Source of the DNA: a virus
DNA length: 12,818 bases
Direction: 5' to 3' (one strand)
UHGV virus genome: UHGV-0342252
Positions 29-6,893 of the stretch are shown in pieces. Numbering within the stretch: the stretch's first letter is position 1; every line of letters begins with the position of its first letter. Position numbers and translations under genes: made by a program. Under the pieces are notes generated by a model, which was not told where the DNA came from, ran no database searches, and saw only the letters and a list, made by a program, of their open reading frames with translations.

Positions 29-241
29 TTAGCCATTTACCTTCCCTCGCAATTGAAGAATTGACTGAAGGTCTTTTTTAATAAATATGCGAGTGCGGAT
101 TGAGCAGTAGTTTTCCTTCATTCTGGCGTAGTAATAGTCCTTTCGTTGTTTAAGCTTGTTGGCATCCGCTGTCATCCAGTCTTTTACAGCAAACTTAATT
201 AACCAGCGGTGGCAGAGATACCATTTCAGGTAATCACTCAT
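29..241 (-). CDS. hypothetical nin-region protein (70 aa)
   Basis: ORF-track ORF; ATG at 241..239 overlaps the stop of the upstream gene by 8 nt (ATGAGTGA), consistent with translational coupling in a minus-strand operon. No motif recognised. Confidence 0.4.
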   Translation of the reverse strand: MSDYLKWYLCHRWLIKFAVKDWMTADANKLKQRKDYYYARMKENYCSIRTRIFIKKDLQSILQLRGKVNG

Positions 242-410
242 CGTCTTCTTCCTCGTACATTGAGCTATTCGGATCGCTCATCAGTTCTGCGCAGCAGTGC
301 TCACACACATGAACTTCCAGCACATGCAGCTTCTGACTGCAGTTAGCGCACGTTAAAGCCCGCTCGACGCTTTCTTTCTGGTATTGAAGGGATTGGGATG
401 GGCTAAGCAT
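234..410 (-). CDS. small C4 zinc-ribbon protein with acidic C-terminus (58 aa)
   Basis: CxxC-x11-CxxC pattern (TCANCS...VCEHCC) and EEEDDE tail. Start chosen at ATG 410..408 (GGTGA upstream, 8-nt overlap with upstream stop); the ORF-track ORF extends to 464, so the start is uncertain. Confidence 0.45.
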   Translation of the reverse strand: MLSPSQSLQYQKESVERALTCANCSQKLHVLEVHVCEHCCAELMSDPNSSMYEEEDDE

Positions 411-810
411 GGCTTTCACCATTAAAAAGTCGCTTGTAAGCATCAATGTCTCGTTTTGCTTCACCGAGCTTTCGTCTTAATTCCATGTTTTCTGATTCAA
501 GCTTTTCCATGTCTTGTTGGTATCGATCGCGGTGTTCTTTCCATGCTTTTTGATACGCCTTCATGTATGTCATGTTGGCCTTTCTCTTTGCCTGACGAAC
601 TGCGTGGTGGTTTTCTACAAACCACTCAGGGTCGTTAAATGCTGCTCTGGCGCATGTATACCAATAATTTGTTGCCTCCCTGTTTAGCCAATAAATACTG
701 ATAAATGGCAACTGGATAGACACCATTTTTCGTTGAGACTCTTTCTCGCCAAACATGTGTCCTTTTTTGATGCTAAGGCCAAATCCAGGTTGAATTAAAA
801 GCATTGTCAT
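403..810 (-). CDS. hypothetical protein (135 aa), charged/helical C-terminal half
   Basis: ORF-track ORF; ATG at 810..808 overlaps the upstream stop (ATGA). No family recognised. Confidence 0.5.
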
Positions 811-1550: not shown

Positions 1551-3431
1551 TTAATACTCCGTCACGTTTTCCTGTCGCCACGCCTCGTCATATTCCGATT
1601 TCGGCATATTGGCGATGTAGCTATAAGGCGATCCTGATTCAAGTTGCAGGAACTGGTGCGATTGCTCGTCAAGGAACAAAGGGACGCCACCTTCCCAACC
1701 TTCGCCGTTACGTTGTTTTTCAAGCATCAAAACAGATGCCGGAGATGCCAGTAGCTGTTCGTCCTTCTCTGACATCTTTTCACCACTCTGAACTCTCTGT
1801 AACGCTCTCTCGCGAGCCTTGTTACGCCAGATGATGAAAAGGTTGTCTGTCAGGTCTGTTATCGCTCCAGAGCCTTTTACGTCCATTTTCCCGGTTGGTT
1901 TTTCTTCGCTGTCTCCTTTTCGCGAGTGAGTAACGAGAATGACGTGGGAGTTTGTTTTGTTTTTGAAGTCGCAAATCGAGTCAACAAACGCCTTCTGCCC
2001 GTTATAGTCATCGTCGCCTATGCCACATTTCATCAGGCTGTCGATGATGAATAACTGGATCCCGTATCGGCGGCGAGCGTAGTCGAATATTTCGATCAGC
2101 CTGTCGGCTTTCGCCGTTCCGGTCAGACCAAACACCCAAAGTCTTTCGTCATAAAATTTAAATGCAGAGTCAATTTCCAGCACTGGCGGCATCTTGCAGC
2201 ACGTCGCCTGACGGGTAAGGCGCTTAAGGAGAATACCAGGCTTCAGCTCAAGTGACGCGATGCACGTCTTCACACCCTGACGCATTGCCTCAAGTGCCAT
2301 ATGCCCGACAACCTCCGTTTTTCCGTGACCGTTCACACCATTGACCAGCGTCAACTCTGCCTCACGGAACTGGAATTTATCTGCCAGAGATTCCCACGGT
2401 GGATTAAACAGATACTGCTGCTTGCCGTAGAAAGCGTTGATAGTGTCCTGGTAAAACTCTCGCGCGCTGTAGAGTTCTTCAGGATCGAAGTAGGATGCCG
2501 TGCCGATGTACTGCCAGATTTCATCCTCGGTAACACCGTTCATCAGGCATTCGTTGATGTCTTTGTACGGCAGAGTAACAAGACGGCAACGATGTTCACC
2601 GAGTCGGCTTGCGATTTCCCTTGCGGCTTCACGACCAACATCATCAACGTCCATCGAGATGAATATTTCCTCAAACCTGTCGAGGTTGTGATACTCAAAC
2701 TCAATCCACTGTTGCTTAGCGCCTTTCCCGCCACCAAACGGCACGGATAACGCCGAGATGCCGTATTGCGCATAGCTCATACAATCAATTTCGCCTTCGC
2801 AAAGTACAACCGCCCTCACGCCAGCGTCCAGAGCCTGCCATCCGAACAGACAAGGTTCGCAATCACCTTCTGCCATAATGACTTTCTTCCCGTCCGGGCG
2901 CTCAGTGCTGATTCGCTTGACCTGCAACAACTCACCATCGCGTTTGTACGGAATCACCAGAGCATCCAGTTCTCGCTCTCCATTCCACACCTTGCCGCTG
3001 ACAACCTCGTAGCGCTTTACGACTTCTGGCGATATGCCACGCGATTGCAGGTACTCAAGATGGGATTCTGTTCTGGTAACGTAGCGGGCGATTTTCTTGC
3101 GATCAGGTCTGGAGAATTTCTTCTCACGTTTGGCATCGAAATGGTGATCGTCATCCTTGATACCGAGAAATGCTTTCGCTTCCTGCATAGCCTGATGCAG
3201 GTTAATTCCTCGACATGCCATCCACAAATCAAGCATGTCACCGCCGTCCCCCTCAGCGAAATCAGCCCATTTTTTCTTGCCGCTAAGGTTGACCTTAAGG
3301 CTGTTTCCCTTGTCACCGTTGACGTTACCGGCAACCCACTCATGCCCCTCTTTCTTGCCGTTTGGCAACAGGTGCGGAGCCACCCTGTCAACCTGCGCCC
3401 AAAGCAGGTCGCTAAGTTCACTTGGCGTCAT
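1551..3431 (-). CDS. primase-helicase fusion (Toprim primase + DnaB/T7 gp4-type SF4 helicase), 626 aa
   Basis: Toprim motifs (VVLCEGEIDCMS; ISMDVDDVGREAA), Walker A (NGVNGHGKTEVV), Walker B-like (QLFIIDSLMK). N-terminal region resembles a primase zinc-binding domain but has no cysteines. ATG overlaps the stop of a small upstream ORF (ATGA). Confidence 0.85.
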   Translation of the reverse strand: MTPSELSDLLWAQVDRVAPHLLPNGKKEGHEWVAGNVNGDKGNSLKVNLSGKKKWADFAEGDGGDMLDLWMACRGINLHQAMQEAKAFLGIKDDDHHFDAKREKKFSRPDRKKIARYVTRTESHLEYLQSRGISPEVVKRYEVVSGKVWNGERELDALVIPYKRDGELLQVKRISTERPDGKKVIMAEGDCEPCLFGWQALDAGVRAVVLCEGEIDCMSYAQYGISALSVPFGGGKGAKQQWIEFEYHNLDRFEEIFISMDVDDVGREAAREIASRLGEHRCRLVTLPYKDINECLMNGVTEDEIWQYIGTASYFDPEELYSAREFYQDTINAFYGKQQYLFNPPWESLADKFQFREAELTLVNGVNGHGKTEVVGHMALEAMRQGVKTCIASLELKPGILLKRLTRQATCCKMPPVLEIDSAFKFYDERLWVFGLTGTAKADRLIEIFDYARRRYGIQLFIIDSLMKCGIGDDDYNGQKAFVDSICDFKNKTNSHVILVTHSRKGDSEEKPTGKMDVKGSGAITDLTDNLFIIWRNKARERALQRVQSGEKMSEKDEQLLASPASVLMLEKQRNGEGWEGGVPLFLDEQSHQFLQLESGSPYSYIANMPKSEYDEAWRQENVTEY

Positions 3432-3535
3432 GATTCCCTCAGATTGAGATTTTTAAACCAGAAATCGACAAACGAAATACTTAACCAGCCGTGGTTATAA
3501 CCAGCGACCAGTAGCGATTTGATTTTTGATTTCAT
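3428..3535 (-). CDS. possible small hydrophobic peptide (35 aa) bridging O-like and helicase genes
   Basis: ATG at 3535..3533 begins 3 nt after the O-like stop; stop TGA overlaps the helicase ATG (ATGA). Product MKSKIKSLLVAGYNHGWLSISFVDFWFKNLNLRES. No independent SD; could be non-coding spacer. Confidence 0.3.
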   Translation of the reverse strand: MKSKIKSLLVAGYNHGWLSISFVDFWFKNLNLRES

Positions 3536-3538
3536 GGT

Positions 3539-4399
3539 TCACCTGTCGAAAAACACGTAGCCAGTTTTCGATACGGTGATTGCGGATGATGGTTTGGATT
3601 GTGGTTGAATGGTTTCTGGCTTTTCGTCGTTCCAGCGCTGACCGTTCAGGTAGCTCGATGGTAACAACCTGTCGAATCCGAACTGCTTACCATTCCTGCA
3701 TGCGATGTCTTCTGCCAGCATCGTGGCAAACTCGCTTGCCGTACCCCTGGTAGTTTTACGCCATTCCCTGAACTGTGTTCTGAATGCCGAAGCTGCGTTT
3801 TTCTTCCCGGCTTTCCGCATGCCTGCACACCAGAATATTTCCTCGAATGCCTTGTCGGTTTCTTCGTGACGGTCATGTGATTTTTCACACTCCGTCCGAA
3901 CACTTTCGGACATAGTGTTTTTATTATTTCTTTTTTCTTTTGTAATAGTTTCTTTTGTGTGTCCCTGTTTTGGTGACAGCGCTGTCACCGTTTTGGTGAC
4001 ACTTTTTGTCACCAATGCAGTGACATTATCACCAGAGTAGTGACACCCTTCTATTTGCCATTCCTCGATGTTCTTGTTAGGCCCGATTTGCTGGCCTTCG
4101 CGAAGGATAACCTTCATCGCGATAAGCTCATTCTTGGCCTTGTTTACCTTCTGTCTTGGCAGCCTGGTAATTTGAGCTAACTGACTATCAGAGATGCGAT
4201 CCATCTTTTTACCGTAGCCGTATGTTTTACGGCATATGGCGTGGGCAACCTTGCTCTGATTTTTCGTTAAATCTGCGCCGATAAGCTCTTCATACAGGGC
4301 ATTTGCAAGACGGGTATAACCATCTTCAACTTCTGCCACACGACGCTCCACAGGCCGTTGTGAAGGCCTTAAATGTGTTACGGTTGCAAGATTACTCAT
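3539..4399 (-). CDS. replication initiator, lambda O-like N-terminal domain with a distinct C-terminal domain (286 aa)
   Basis: N-terminus ([55 protein letters not shown]...GPNKNIEEW) closely parallels lambda O as I recall it; iteron repeats and an A+T-rich tract lie mid-gene; strong SD (AGGAG) before the ATG. The C-terminal half does not resemble lambda O. Confidence 0.85.
3915..4047. other. ori-like element inside the O-like gene: GTGACA-type iterons (3972..4047) next to an A+T-rich tract (3915..3960)
   Basis: About seven copies of GGTGACA/TGTCACC in alternating orientation, including perfect palindromes GGTGACAGC/GCTGTCACC, followed in gene direction by a T/A-rich stretch; same layout as lambda ori within O. 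Iterons encode the VT-rich linker ([17 protein letters not shown]). Confidence 0.7.
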
Positions 4400-4538
4400 G
4401 ACCTTTCTCCTTCTGCATCAGCTTCACTTTTTCCAACTCAGCCCGGAATCGACCAGGCTGCTTGAAGCTGGACAGGAAGCGATCACGTAGTATGTGTTTG
4501 TGAATTTTGTCCTGGTAAGGACTGAGTTGTTTTGTCAT
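4392..4538 (-). CDS. small basic ORF (48 aa) between cII and the O-like gene
   Basis: Strong SD (AGGAG) 6 nt before ATG 4538..4536; stop overlaps the O-like ATG by 8 nt (ATGAGTAA). Product [48 protein letters not shown]. The SD+ATG appear to be those used by O in lambda. Confidence 0.4.
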
Positions 4539-4548
4539 AATGACTCCT

Positions 4549-4626
4549 GTGGATTGATCCAGTAATGACCTCAGAATTCCATCTGGATTTGTTCAGAACG
4601 CTCGGTTGCCGCCGGGCGTTTTTTAT
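4549..4626 (+). ncRNA. oop: OOP-like antisense RNA overlapping the 3' end of cII
   Basis: Plus-strand sequence ...GAACGCTCGGTTGCCGCCGGGCGTTTTTTATT matches the lambda oop terminator region as I recall it (GC-rich hairpin plus T-run ending about 4624); a CATAAT -10 candidate lies at 4536..4541. The -35 is not convincing, so the 5' end is approximate. Confidence 0.45.
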
Positions 4627-4864
4627 TGGTGAGAATCGAAGCAACTTGTCGTGCCAATCGAGCCATATCGTCGTCAACGACGCCCCATTCAAGAACAGCA
4701 AGCAGCATTGAGAACTTTGGAATCCAGTCCCTCTTCCACCTGCTGATCTGCGACTTATCAACTCCCACAGCTTCCGCTGTCTTCTCAGTTCCAAGCATTG
4801 CGATTTTGTTAAGCAACGCACTCTCGATTCGTAGAGCCTCGTTGCGTTTGTTTGCACGAACCAT
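4571..4864 (-). CDS. cII: transcriptional activator CII (97 aa)
   Basis: Translation from ATG 4864..4862 ([97 protein letters not shown]) matches lambda CII from memory nearly residue for residue. The ORF-track ORF 4571..4924 extends upstream without support. Confidence 0.95.
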
Positions 4865-4983: not shown

Positions 4984-5199
4984 TTAAGCGGCTTTGTGTT
5001 CCGGCGGGAACAAGCCATCTAGCGTTGTCTTGCTCCCCAATTTATTCAGCGCCTTTACCAGGCGACGGCACGACTCTAAATCTGGAGTCCGGATACCTGA
5101 CTCGTAGTTAGCTAAGCGGGACTGGTTCCAGCCACACGCGCCTGCTAACGCAGATTGAGTGATGCCAAGCTTTTTCCGTTCGTTGGCAATGTTGTTCAT
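4984..5199 (-). CDS. cro: Cro-like HTH repressor (71 aa), not lambda Cro type
   Basis: First gene downstream of pR, divergent from cI; SD AAGGA before the ATG. HTH (LAGACGWNQSRLANYESGIRTP) is very similar to the cI HTH (LAELCGWASQSRIGNYESGTRSV), as expected for proteins sharing operators. Confidence 0.75.
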   Translation of the reverse strand: MNNIANERKKLGITQSALAGACGWNQSRLANYESGIRTPDLESCRRLVKALNKLGSKTTLDGLFPPEHKAA

Positions 5200-5303: not shown

Positions 5304-5945
5304 ATGCGCATGAACAGAACAGAAACTATCGCCGCGCGTATCAAGCGATTACGGGAAGATAAAGGGCTTTCACAGAAGGCTCTGGCGGAGCTTTGCGGCT
5401 GGGCTTCACAATCTCGGATCGGCAACTATGAATCAGGAACCAGAAGCGTTAGTGTTGATGACGCAGAGGTAATAGCTAAAGCTTTGGGCGTCGCTCCGGC
5501 AGAACTGCTTTTTGGCGACAACTATCAGGGACAATACAAGCCAGGGGAAAAGTTTCCGTTGATTAGCTGGGTTAGCGCAGGTGCATGGAGTGAGGCCGTA
5601 GAGCCGTACAACCCTCAGGCAGTGGATGAGTGGTATGAATCAGATTGTCACGTTGTCGGTGACGCCTTCTGGCTCAGGGTTCAGGGCGACTCAATGACAG
5701 CTCCTACCGGCCTTAGCGTTCCTGAGGGTATGCTGGTTCTGTTCGACACTGGAAAGGAAGCCGTTAATGGAAGCCTGGTAGTTGCGAAGCTGACAGATGC
5801 TAATGAAGCCACGTTCAAGAAGCTAATCATTGATGGCGGTAACAAATACCTGAAAGGGCTTAACCCTGCCTATCCGTTGATCCCAATCGACGGCAACTGC
5901 AAGATAATCGGCGTAGCAGTGCAGATGATGATGAAATTCTCCTGA
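5304..5945 (+). CDS. cI: CI-type prophage repressor with LexA-like S24 autopeptidase domain (213 aa)
   Basis: N-terminal HTH; C-terminal domain with Ala-Gly cleavage site (SWVSAGAW), Ser (QGDSMTAP) and Lys (VVAKL) resembles the P22 C2 / lambda CI family. Alternative start at ATG 5310. Confidence 0.9.
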   Translation: MRMNRTETIAARIKRLREDKGLSQKALAELCGWASQSRIGNYESGTRSVSVDDAEVIAKALGVAPAELLFGDNYQGQYKPGEKFPLISWVSAGAWSEAVEPYNPQAVDEWYESDCHVVGDAFWLRVQGDSMTAPTGLSVPEGMLVLFDTGKEAVNGSLVVAKLTDANEATFKKLIIDGGNKYLKGLNPAYPLIPIDGNCKIIGVAVQMMMKFS

Positions 5946-6566: not shown

Positions 6567-6893
6567 ATGGATGCACAAGCACGCCGCCGCGAACGTCGCG
6601 CAGAGAAACAGGCTCAATGGAAAGCAGCAAATCCCCTGTTGGTTGGGGTAAGCGCAAAACCAGTTAACCGCCCTATTCTCTCGCTGAATCACAAACCGAA
6701 ATCACGAGTAGAAAGCGCACTGAATCCGATAGACCTTACGGTGCTGGCTGAATACCACGAACAGATTGAAAGCAACCTGCAACGTATTGAGCGCAAGAAT
6801 CAGCGCACATGGTACAGCAAGCCACGCAGTGAAATGGGTGTGACTTGTGTTGGTCGCCAGAAAATGAAATTAGGCAGCAAGCCACTTATTTGA
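6567..6893 (+). CDS. N: antitermination protein N (108 aa)
   Basis: MDAQARRRERRAEKQAQWKAANPLLVGVSAKPVNRPILSLN... matches lambda N from memory over almost its whole length, including the Arg-rich boxB-binding N-terminus; cognate nutL and nutR boxB sites are present. Confidence 0.95.
   Translation: MDAQARRRERRAEKQAQWKAANPLLVGVSAKPVNRPILSLNHKPKSRVESALNPIDLTVLAEYHEQIESNLQRIERKNQRTWYSKPRSEMGVTCVGRQKMKLGSKPLI

Follow-up and report, generated by a model that had tools for sequence, protein, structure and literature searches.

Directly after its lambda-like cII gene, the stretch of viral DNA analysed here (12,818 nt, referred to as the window) carries a 48-codon reading frame at the place where phage lambda starts its replication gene O. 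The locus raises the question of whether this frame is a gene at all, to which of its two neighbouring modules it belongs, and how it comes to use a start that serves a different gene in lambda. The initial annotation had described a basic 48-aa peptide that takes over lambda O's ribosome-binding site and ATG at a mosaic junction, and had left a choice between a translated remnant and a small regulator. We identify the frame as a known small gene of the orf48 type, which heads the replication module and was joined to a lambda-type cII segment by recombination within a short conserved stretch. For this identity, the module membership and the junction model taken jointly, we estimate a probability of about 0.85.

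Identity and distribution of the gene

The window is oriented opposite to the lambda map and the frame is read on the minus strand, with its ATG at 4536-4538 and its TAA at 4392-4394 (Table 1). The peptide is indeed basic, with a pI of 10.1 and a net charge of about +6 as computed from the orf48 sequence. Counting all six frames, the window contains 53 ATG-initiated ORFs of at least 48 aa, against about 28 in mononucleotide shuffles, so a bare 48-codon ORF would be unremarkable alone; the status of orf48 as a gene rests instead on homology and on its pattern of substitution.

Table 1. Features at and around the cII/replication junction, in window coordinates.
Feature	Position	Strand	Basis and remarks
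orf48-type gene (DUF2740)	4392..4538	-	48 codons + TAA, first cistron of the replication module; ORF list, Pfam PF10872
orf48 Shine-Dalgarno (SD) AGGAG, also serving lambda O	4544..4548	-	sequence; invariant in six-phage alignment
lambda-type cII	4571..4864	-	Pfam Phage_CII, E = 1.7e-48; 97.6% nt identity to lambda; upstream of orf48
O-like replication initiator, 286 aa	3539..4399	-	Pfam Phage_rep_O, E = 1e-37; ATG 4397-4399
O-like gene's own Shine-Dalgarno AGGAG	4407..4411	-	sequence; within orf48 codons 43-45
primase-helicase, 626 aa	1551..3431	-	Toprim_2 + DnaB_C/AAA_25; replication module partner
four iteron-like repeats, 19-20 nt, TGTCACC-N5-GGTGACA	3960..4045		repeat search, families D1/D2 + I1/I2
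crossover zone, ~33 bp common to both parental types	4531..4563		end of lambda match + start of mEp043/Sf101-type match
pO (oop promoter) -10 CATAAT, TG before it at 4533-4534	4536..4541	+	sequence
inferred pO -35 TGGTAA, 17-nt spacer	4513..4518	+	inferred from P22 annotation
oop antisense RNA, ends approximate	4550..4626	+	homology to lambda, 97.6%; overlaps cII 3' end

The protein matches Pfam PF10872 (DUF2740) at 99.4 bits against a cut-off of 27 (E = 8.9e-29), residues 6-48 covering positions 1-43 of the 43-position model, and it also matches PHROG 1913 (E = 2.7e-28); an NCBIfam search with orf48 returned no model. Both conserved motifs of the family, HK.I[LI]RD and QPGRFRAE[LW], are present, and the length agrees with the 46-48 residues of other members; in alignments of 20-23 members, H13, K14, I16 and D19 are invariant and R30-K37 nearly so. 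The amino acid sequence is 100% identical to that of ORFs of HK022, HK620 (hkaW), VT2-Sakai (H0097), Stx2 II, mEp043 and mEp235, 85% identical to P22 orf48, and 58% identical to an ORF of an Erwinia phage.

By tblastn, a DUF2740 ORF is found in 127 phage records. The gene is carried by 400 of 5426 complete E. coli genomes, always at full length and at no less than 95% nucleotide identity, and RefSeq names it 'DUF2740 family protein' there. Searched with a profile, 1.8 billion cluster representatives gave only 12 matches, all of Enterobacterales type, which marks the family as narrow; members with an organism name or a fetched locus come from E. coli, Salmonella, Klebsiella, Citrobacter, Pluralibacter, Erwinia and related Enterobacterales. 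Its slot recurs as well, since in P22, HK022, the Erwinia phage and prophages of Klebsiella and Pluralibacter the gene follows a cII/C1-type gene and precedes an O/gp18-type initiator, whose ATG is overlapped by the stop of orf48. On this homology, the window's ORF is the known orf48-type small gene (P22 orf48, HK620 hkaW; Pfam DUF2740).

Databases and publications already cover the gene and its family, along with where it lies and the start codon that it shares; as a discovery the identification carries little weight, being that of a known gene in a known arrangement with nothing surprising found. What it offers is a widespread early phage protein, encoded in about 7% of complete E. coli genomes and in Stx2 phages among others, which heads a replication operon and would make an inexpensive target for genetics.

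Many RefSeq phage records call DUF2740 a 'tail protein', a label that is almost certainly wrong. Literature searches yielded no paper on DUF2740 and only unrelated matches for hkaW, and they turned up no ribosome profiling or mass spectrometry record of the protein. Two uses of the name refer to other genes: the 'orf48' that is gnarl1 of PMC12373910 is an unrelated gene of Klebsiella phage KpV79, and the 'Orf48' in the lambda interactome study denotes an ORF of lambda, which has no DUF2740.

Coding evidence and predicted product

The 92 loci compared contain 11 distinct DNA versions of the gene, and 78 of the 92 copies are identical at the DNA level, so that most of the sample is redundant in evolutionary terms and the test for selection depends on about 10 divergent copies, each of 48 codons. 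All three versions that lie one base away from the common one differ from it synonymously. Across the whole ORF, dN/dS among diverged copies ranges from 0.10 to 0.62, the highest values coming from very close pairs with few substitutions. In the core (codons 10-43, chosen to be clear of the oop promoter and of the initiator's ribosome-binding site) dN/dS falls between 0.07 and 0.26, with a synonymous excess at Fisher p values from 0.015 down to 7e-10; in distant pairs, synonymous sites of the core are near saturation (pS 0.8-0.96, against pN 0.2-0.3). By this measure codons 10-43 are under purifying selection, and orf48 is, as judged from its substitutions and its location, a protein-coding gene occupying the place of the early rightward (pR) operon. 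Together with the low dN/dS, its strong SD is indirect evidence of expression as a protein.

The frame is likewise maintained. In 92 of 92 loci no break interrupts it, its length is 47-48 codons, and its last 8 nt lie within a frame opened by an ATG; a separate retrieval, made by way of the O-like N-domain, gives the same intact frame and 8-nt overlap in 79 of 79 loci. The sole frameshifted copy seen is a cluster representative (P0055). The initial annotation had named conservation of the peptide frame as a check to be run on relatives, and a frame broken in close relatives as the outcome that would speak against it; that comparison, now made, finds the frame kept in 171 of 171 related loci.

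AlphaFold2 (AF2) places helices at residues 7-25 and 28-44 with a mean pLDDT of 80 and a low pTM of 0.36; the predicted product, of 5.8 kDa, is a basic hairpin of two helices. Foldseek comparison of this model with the PDB and BFVD gave no match, and a profile search of PDB sequences gave only noise (E of 0.5 or above); across the structure libraries, the PDB sequences and the profile search with its 12 representatives, no relative of known function was found by fold or sequence. A resemblance to lambda CIII (LRD...QPG) was considered and rejected, with an hhalign probability of 1.2% and no Pfam CIII match at E < 1.

The shared start, the oop promoter and the crossover

A 19-mer at the start of orf48, CAGGAGTCATTATGACAAA, is identical at the start of lambda O. 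It closes a 373-nt stretch with 97.6% identity to lambda 38324-38697 (E = 0), so that the sharing reflects homology and not chance, and the alignment bears out the proposal that the frame uses lambda O's ribosome-binding site and ATG. Past the shared start, alignment of orf48 with lambda O detects no residual similarity, identity stopping after ATGACAAA. Among six phages, the Erwinia phage included, the invariant core reads C.AATC.ACAGGAGT.ATTATG.CAAA, also written CAGGAGT.ATTATG.CAAA. The counterpart of the lambda O N-terminus, as far as alignment identifies it, is not orf48 but the N-terminus of the downstream O-like gene (MSNLAT..., against MTNTAK... in lambda O), which is 49% identical over the first 161 aligned residues, starting from residue 1.

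The suggested alignment to lambda cII-O also locates the junction. Lambda identity ends at about 4528-4531 (query position 373 corresponds to window position 4528), which is the 5' end of orf48, while identity to phages with the same replication module (mEp043, Sf101, SEN22) begins at 4563 (query position 338); the crossover thus falls within about 33 bp common to both. The description of this site as a mosaic junction between a lambda-like cII and a non-lambda replication module is thereby upheld.

The same stretch is used on the other strand. CATAAT, the pO -10, is the reverse complement of ATTATG, and the orf48 start codon lies inside it. The inferred -35, TGGTAA, falls in orf48 codons 7-9 (ORF nt 21-26) and has 3 of 6 consensus matches; because this -35 is weak, pO is not called by a simple sigma-70 promoter scan of the window. 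The lambda pO -35 hexamer, which we take to be TTGAGT, is consistent with the six-phage alignment. The curated P22 record annotates an oop promoter that extends from 3 nt ahead of orf48 into the gene as far as nt 26, with the oop terminator just upstream, and oop is annotated in the HK633, 434 and P22 records. The window contains the oop/pO unit, with a -10, a putative transcript of about 77 nt antisense to the cII 3' end, and an intrinsic terminator (a terminator-like hairpin and T run at 4595-4622); an Rfam gathering scan of the whole window returned no family, and oop is not confirmed by that route.

Some relatives have ATTATA, the consensus -10, in place of ATTATG, and there the ATG lies 4 nt further downstream and opens a 47-codon ORF. 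These relatives show that promoter element and ORF are both maintained; the length from the -10 to the O start varies by no more than 1 nt, also in loci with a displaced ATG. An OOP transcript has been detected in prophage BTP1 (PMC7067206), which by tblastn of phage records carries orf48, and the orf48-type pO is therefore probably active in vivo.

The conserved ATG is not tied to one gene. Among the first 120 IMG/VR contigs carrying the junction, the ORF at this ATG is gp53-type in 44, lambda-O-type in 39, DUF2740 in 29 and a 214-aa gene in 3, and in the remaining 5 it runs off the contig end; in all, at least four or five gene families start there. The initial wording that the frame takes over lambda O's start is thus right as to the SD and ATG used, and unsupported as to direction. 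The shared start at a conserved junction has already been published: Hayes et al. 2012 (PMC3349717) describe a 33-bp conserved region among lambdoid phages, note that lambda is without the orf48 found in P22, and set 'position 1' of a 23-phage alignment at the ATG that opens lambda O or, in other phages, an orf48 homologue (hkaW) or an HK97 gp53 homologue.

These observations show how the arrangement arises. The SD and ATG form part of a conserved stretch of about 33 bp whose other strand carries the pO -10 and the OOP start, and recombination in the shared cII-oop-pO stretch joins any immunity/cII module to any replication module. Because modules are swapped at this point, the first gene on the right-hand side inherits the same start each time. 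The window is such a recombinant: lambda sequence gives out between the pO -10 and -35, and a replication module follows in the order orf48, O-like initiator, primase-helicase. It is a clean natural exchange of modules at a short two-strand linker, with SD and ATG on one strand and the pO -10 on the other.

Association with the replication module

Loci in which orf48 is parted from cII indicate which module it travels with. In one of them (L100) a 249-aa gene stands between cII and the DUF2740 gene; in two others (L108 and L163) a 137-aa gene after cII occupies the conserved SD-ATG, and the DUF2740 gene uses a different SD, GAGGAGGCTTAATG. In all three the DUF2740 gene still overlaps the initiator, and because this overlap is kept where the contact with cII is lost, orf48 travels with the replication genes; gene order thus assigns it to the replication module. 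In nearly all loci it is also adjacent to cII. A distant member (in L098) overlaps its neighbour by ATGA.

Within the module, the partners of orf48 vary. The O-like protein of the window has no detectable similarity to HK022 O (E = 1.5), yet an identical orf48 precedes both, and the helicase partner differs among orf48 loci (in the window it matches PHROG 239, DNA primase/helicase, at E = 2e-171). Co-evolution of Orf48 with one initiator type was considered and rejected, as the identical protein precedes unrelated N-domains. With different helicase systems taken into account as well, a role in trans, if there is one, is more likely to be generic (directed at nucleic acid or a host factor) than to consist in recognition of one initiator.

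The iteron-like repeats and an adjoining A+T-rich run (about 3920-3958) lie within the O-like gene and form its presumed origin, in a position analogous to lambda ori and the P22 rep_origin. The first ATG and the iterons are 493 nt apart in the window and 491 nt apart in P22.

Translational arrangement at the overlap

The stop of orf48 lies 8 nt inside the O-like gene, the overlap reading ATGAGTAA, and the AGGAG of the O-like gene ends up 7 nt before its ATG. The frame was thus correctly described as overlapping an O-like start that has a strong SD of its own (8 nt; AGGAG at 4407-4411). Ribosomes finishing orf48 would terminate at this ATGAGTAA overlap, 8 nt into the initiator gene. As the overlap is universal (171 of 171 loci), coupling of initiator translation to orf48 is the most economical role for the arrangement, and we infer it as a tentative best guess, held at somewhat less than even odds. 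That the O-like gene has a good SD of its own speaks against such coupling being needed.

An RNA fold is also predicted across the overlap. RNAalifold pairs orf48 codons 16-19 with the initiator start, GGUCAUGAGUA, in 91.7% of cells, the two arms lying at 4481-4492 and 4393-4403. When both helices that were tested are considered jointly, a percentage paired as high as the observed one occurs in 5 of 500 shuffles, and the predicted fold of the region is more stable than those of shuffled sequences (MFE z-score -2.95). No pair of the helix has changed on both sides, and both arms are coding and nearly invariant. From this fold one may construct a gate, in which the O-like start (4397-4399) would be sequestered by long-range pairing with orf48 codons 16-19 (4481-4492), a helix that only ribosomes translating orf48 would open, and the SD of those ribosomes would directly abut the OOP:mRNA duplex. 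Initiator synthesis would then come under OOP antisense control, with the conserved basic hairpin protein having an additional partner. We regard this elaboration as improbable; if it is true, orf48 would act as a regulatory relay that links the lysis-lysogeny antisense RNA to replication.

Alternative explanations

The alternative that survives best takes orf48 to encode a trans-acting accessory protein unrelated to replication, for instance one that modulates lysis-lysogeny through CII/OOP, or one that serves host takeover or counter-defence, lodged in a slot that tolerates small genes. In favour of this, the identical protein is found before unrelated initiators and different helicases; its conserved charged motifs suggest a specific partner, the slot is occupied in a moron-like manner by at least four or five unrelated genes, and the gene adjoins cII in nearly all loci. 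It nevertheless stays with O when parted from cII, and in 171 of 171 loci it overlaps the initiator start by 8 nt; neither the structure libraries nor the PDB sequences gave a match that hints at an activity, and the comparison with lambda CIII stands at 1.2%. We consider this explanation unlikely, at about one chance in four by our reckoning.

A second alternative makes the peptide irrelevant and attributes conservation to the DNA or RNA, whether as the pO -35, as a fixed distance from pO to the origin, or as an mRNA fold hiding the initiator start. The first 26 nt of the ORF do serve as pO promoter, and spacing matters in lambda, where adding 6 or 10 bp between pO and ori already impairs replication (PMC3985674). 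The distances from ATG to iterons (493 nt here, 491 nt in P22) and from the -10 to the O start (kept within 1 nt) would fit such a constraint, as would the predicted helix, with about 92% of cells paired, and the z-score of -2.95. Against this, amino acids are kept while core synonymous sites approach saturation (pS 0.8-0.96 versus pN 0.2-0.3), the long-range helix lacks compensatory change and both its arms are also constrained by coding, and in L100, L108 and L163 the distance from pO to ori has grown by hundreds of bp with orf48 still kept. A pure spacer explains neither this constraint at the amino acid level nor these changes in spacing, and we hold a role exclusively in cis to be very improbable.

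The third, that the frame is a translated or untranslated by-product of the recombination that fused the lambda O start to foreign DNA, draws on the shortness of orf48 and on the identity of its first 8 nt and SD to the lambda O start, and is effectively refuted by these tests, since orf48 is a full-length family member across phages of E. coli, Salmonella, Klebsiella, Citrobacter, Pluralibacter and Erwinia, its core codons show purifying selection at a constant length of 46-48 codons, its frame is intact in 171 of 171 loci, it persists with an SD of its own and joined to the O-like gene where another gene occupies the junction, and the lambda O N-terminus is homologous to the downstream gene instead. 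Of the two options in the initial annotation the remnant thus falls away, whereas orf48 may be a small regulator. The reading that we prefer, an orf48-type gene belonging to a replication module that was exchanged at the cII-oop-pO stretch, can be set beside several characterised phages.

Comparison with known systems

Lambda CIII, a small helical FtsH inhibitor, is likewise a small early peptide with a helix ending in QPG. The likeness is superficial: CIII lies in a different operon, and at an hhalign probability of 1.2% orf48 is not a member of its family.

The HK97 gp53-type ORF of 53 aa (e.g. HK633_051) stands closer in position, using the same ATG after the same SD and overlapping the O start that follows. 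Its first 11 residues (MTKRRKKYQEK) are similar to those of orf48, in a stretch that encodes pO on the other strand, and in BLASTP of orf48 against gp53-type proteins only residues 1-11 align. The gp53-type ORF has no Pfam match, and its overlap with O is 14 nt, compared with 8 for orf48.

P22 orf48, HK620 hkaW and the HK022 ORF agree with the window's gene in family (85-100% amino acid identity), in length, in the slot from cII/c1 to O/gp18, in the 8-nt ATGAGTAA overlap, and in a 5' end that overlaps the oop promoter. Compared with P22 and HK022, the upstream cII-oop segment of the window is lambda's; otherwise there is no essential difference in orf48. The module downstream in the window pairs a P22-gp18-like initiator N-domain with a primase-helicase, not with a DnaB-type helicase.

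At the lambda cII-oop-pO-O junction (Hayes et al. 2012, PMC3349717, Fig. S1/S2) the SD-ATG-ACA-AA is identical and the pO -10 lies over the start codon, and lambda's oop and terminator are 97.6% identical to those of the window. In lambda, however, O itself starts there, whereas the window has a 139-nt small gene between the junction and the O-like gene, and its pO -35 is of the orf48 type (TGGTAA).

A parallel to the junction was made in the laboratory. In the hybrid lambda(18,12)P22 (PMC3349717), lambda immunity/cII and oop are joined to orf48-18-12 through a hybrid pO with the -10 of lambda and the -35 of P22, and the junction in the window has the same architecture. The window differs from it in its orf48 allele, which is of the E. 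coli (HK022/HK620) type, and in its helicase gene. The window is a natural counterpart of the lambda/P22 hybrid.

Sequence identity within orf48

The 147-nt ORF of orf48 (4392-4538), the 48-codon DUF2740 gene between cII and the O-like replication initiator gene, is identical base for base in 78 of 92 loci (window compared with L001-L094) that differ in their flanking cII alleles and initiator types. Because its DNA stays the same amid differing flanks, the ORF itself may serve as a recombination linker, joining the immunity module to the replication module. Within it, synonymous change is nearly absent from codons 27-34, and copies whose dS is near 0.8 are no exception. This segment contains a hairpin, for which two compensatory changes were seen, each in a single sequence, a result that is not significant (36/500 shuffles).

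Features in and around the cII-replication junction (window positions unless a locus is named)
Feature	Location	Strand	Context
Hairpin CAGCCUGG-UCGAUU-CCGGGCUG	4439-4460	-	mid-orf48, codons 27-34 (QPGRFRAE)
137-aa ORF, MPGQTKQVNTG...	L108 and L163, about locus 150-560		ahead of orf48
249-aa ORF	L100 1755-2504		at junction
214-aa ORF, MTYENDKF...GIYKIGMT...	three contigs, IMG/VR junction sample
Four iteron-like inverted-repeat units, 19-20 nt, TGTCACC-N5-GGTGACA	3960-4045		within O-like gene
A+T-rich run	about 3920-3958		adjoins iteron-like repeats
35-codon ORF MKSKIKSLLVAGYNHGWLSISFVDFWFKNLNLRES	3428-3535	-	bridges O-like gene and primase-helicase
ORF	4984-5199	-	beside lambda-type cII
ORF	5304-5945	+	beside lambda-type cII
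ORF	6567-6893	+	apparent N gene, beyond the immunity region

Other genes and altered starts at the junction

The conserved AGGAGTAATTATG start is also used by genes other than orf48, and the slot looks like a hot spot for insertions, with ORFs of 137, 214 and 249 aa in related loci and in the IMG/VR sample of the first 120 contigs carrying the junction. The start itself has shifted in several prophages of Klebsiella, Citrobacter and Pluralibacter (L012, L095, L097, L098; alignment A5 columns 28-40), where ATTATG has become ATTATA, which on the opposite strand is the consensus -10. There a new ATG, lying 4 nt further downstream, opens the DUF2740 ORF, which runs for 47 codons, and the length of DNA to the initiator start differs by 1 nt only.

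Many RefSeq phage records name the 48-aa product 'tail protein', among them NC_002371.2 (P22), NC_019706.1 (mEp043), NC_008464.1 and NC_070949.1. The name was apparently taken over from the PHROG 1913 label, and it is almost certainly an annotation error, since orf48 sits in the early operon, between cII/c1 and the replication initiator.

Neighbouring immunity and replication genes

Classed by eye from translations alone, the immunity-region ORFs adjoining the lambda-type cII look non-lambda: one appears to encode a Cro-like HTH protein of 71 aa and another a 213-aa repressor-like protein, expected to belong to the S24-peptidase type, and the N gene beyond (MDAQARRRERRAEKQAQWKAANPLL...) looks lambda-like. 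This would add further mosaicism within the window.

On the replication side, the end of the 35-codon ORF overlaps the helicase start; the ORF had no match in Pfam or NCBIfam and is a 'hypothetical protein' in the annotation of phage vB_EcoP-720R6. That closest phage record (L001 5470-7369) splits the primase-helicase into two CDSs, of 1629 and 225 nt. In the window it is a single intact gene of 626 codons (1551-3431), which suggests a frameshift or sequencing error in the record.

Inside the O-like gene, the T-rich stretch beside the iteron-like repeats carries TTTCTTTTGT more than once, and repeats and stretch together are likely the replication origin, whose position within the initiator gene matches that in lambda O and in P22 gene 18.
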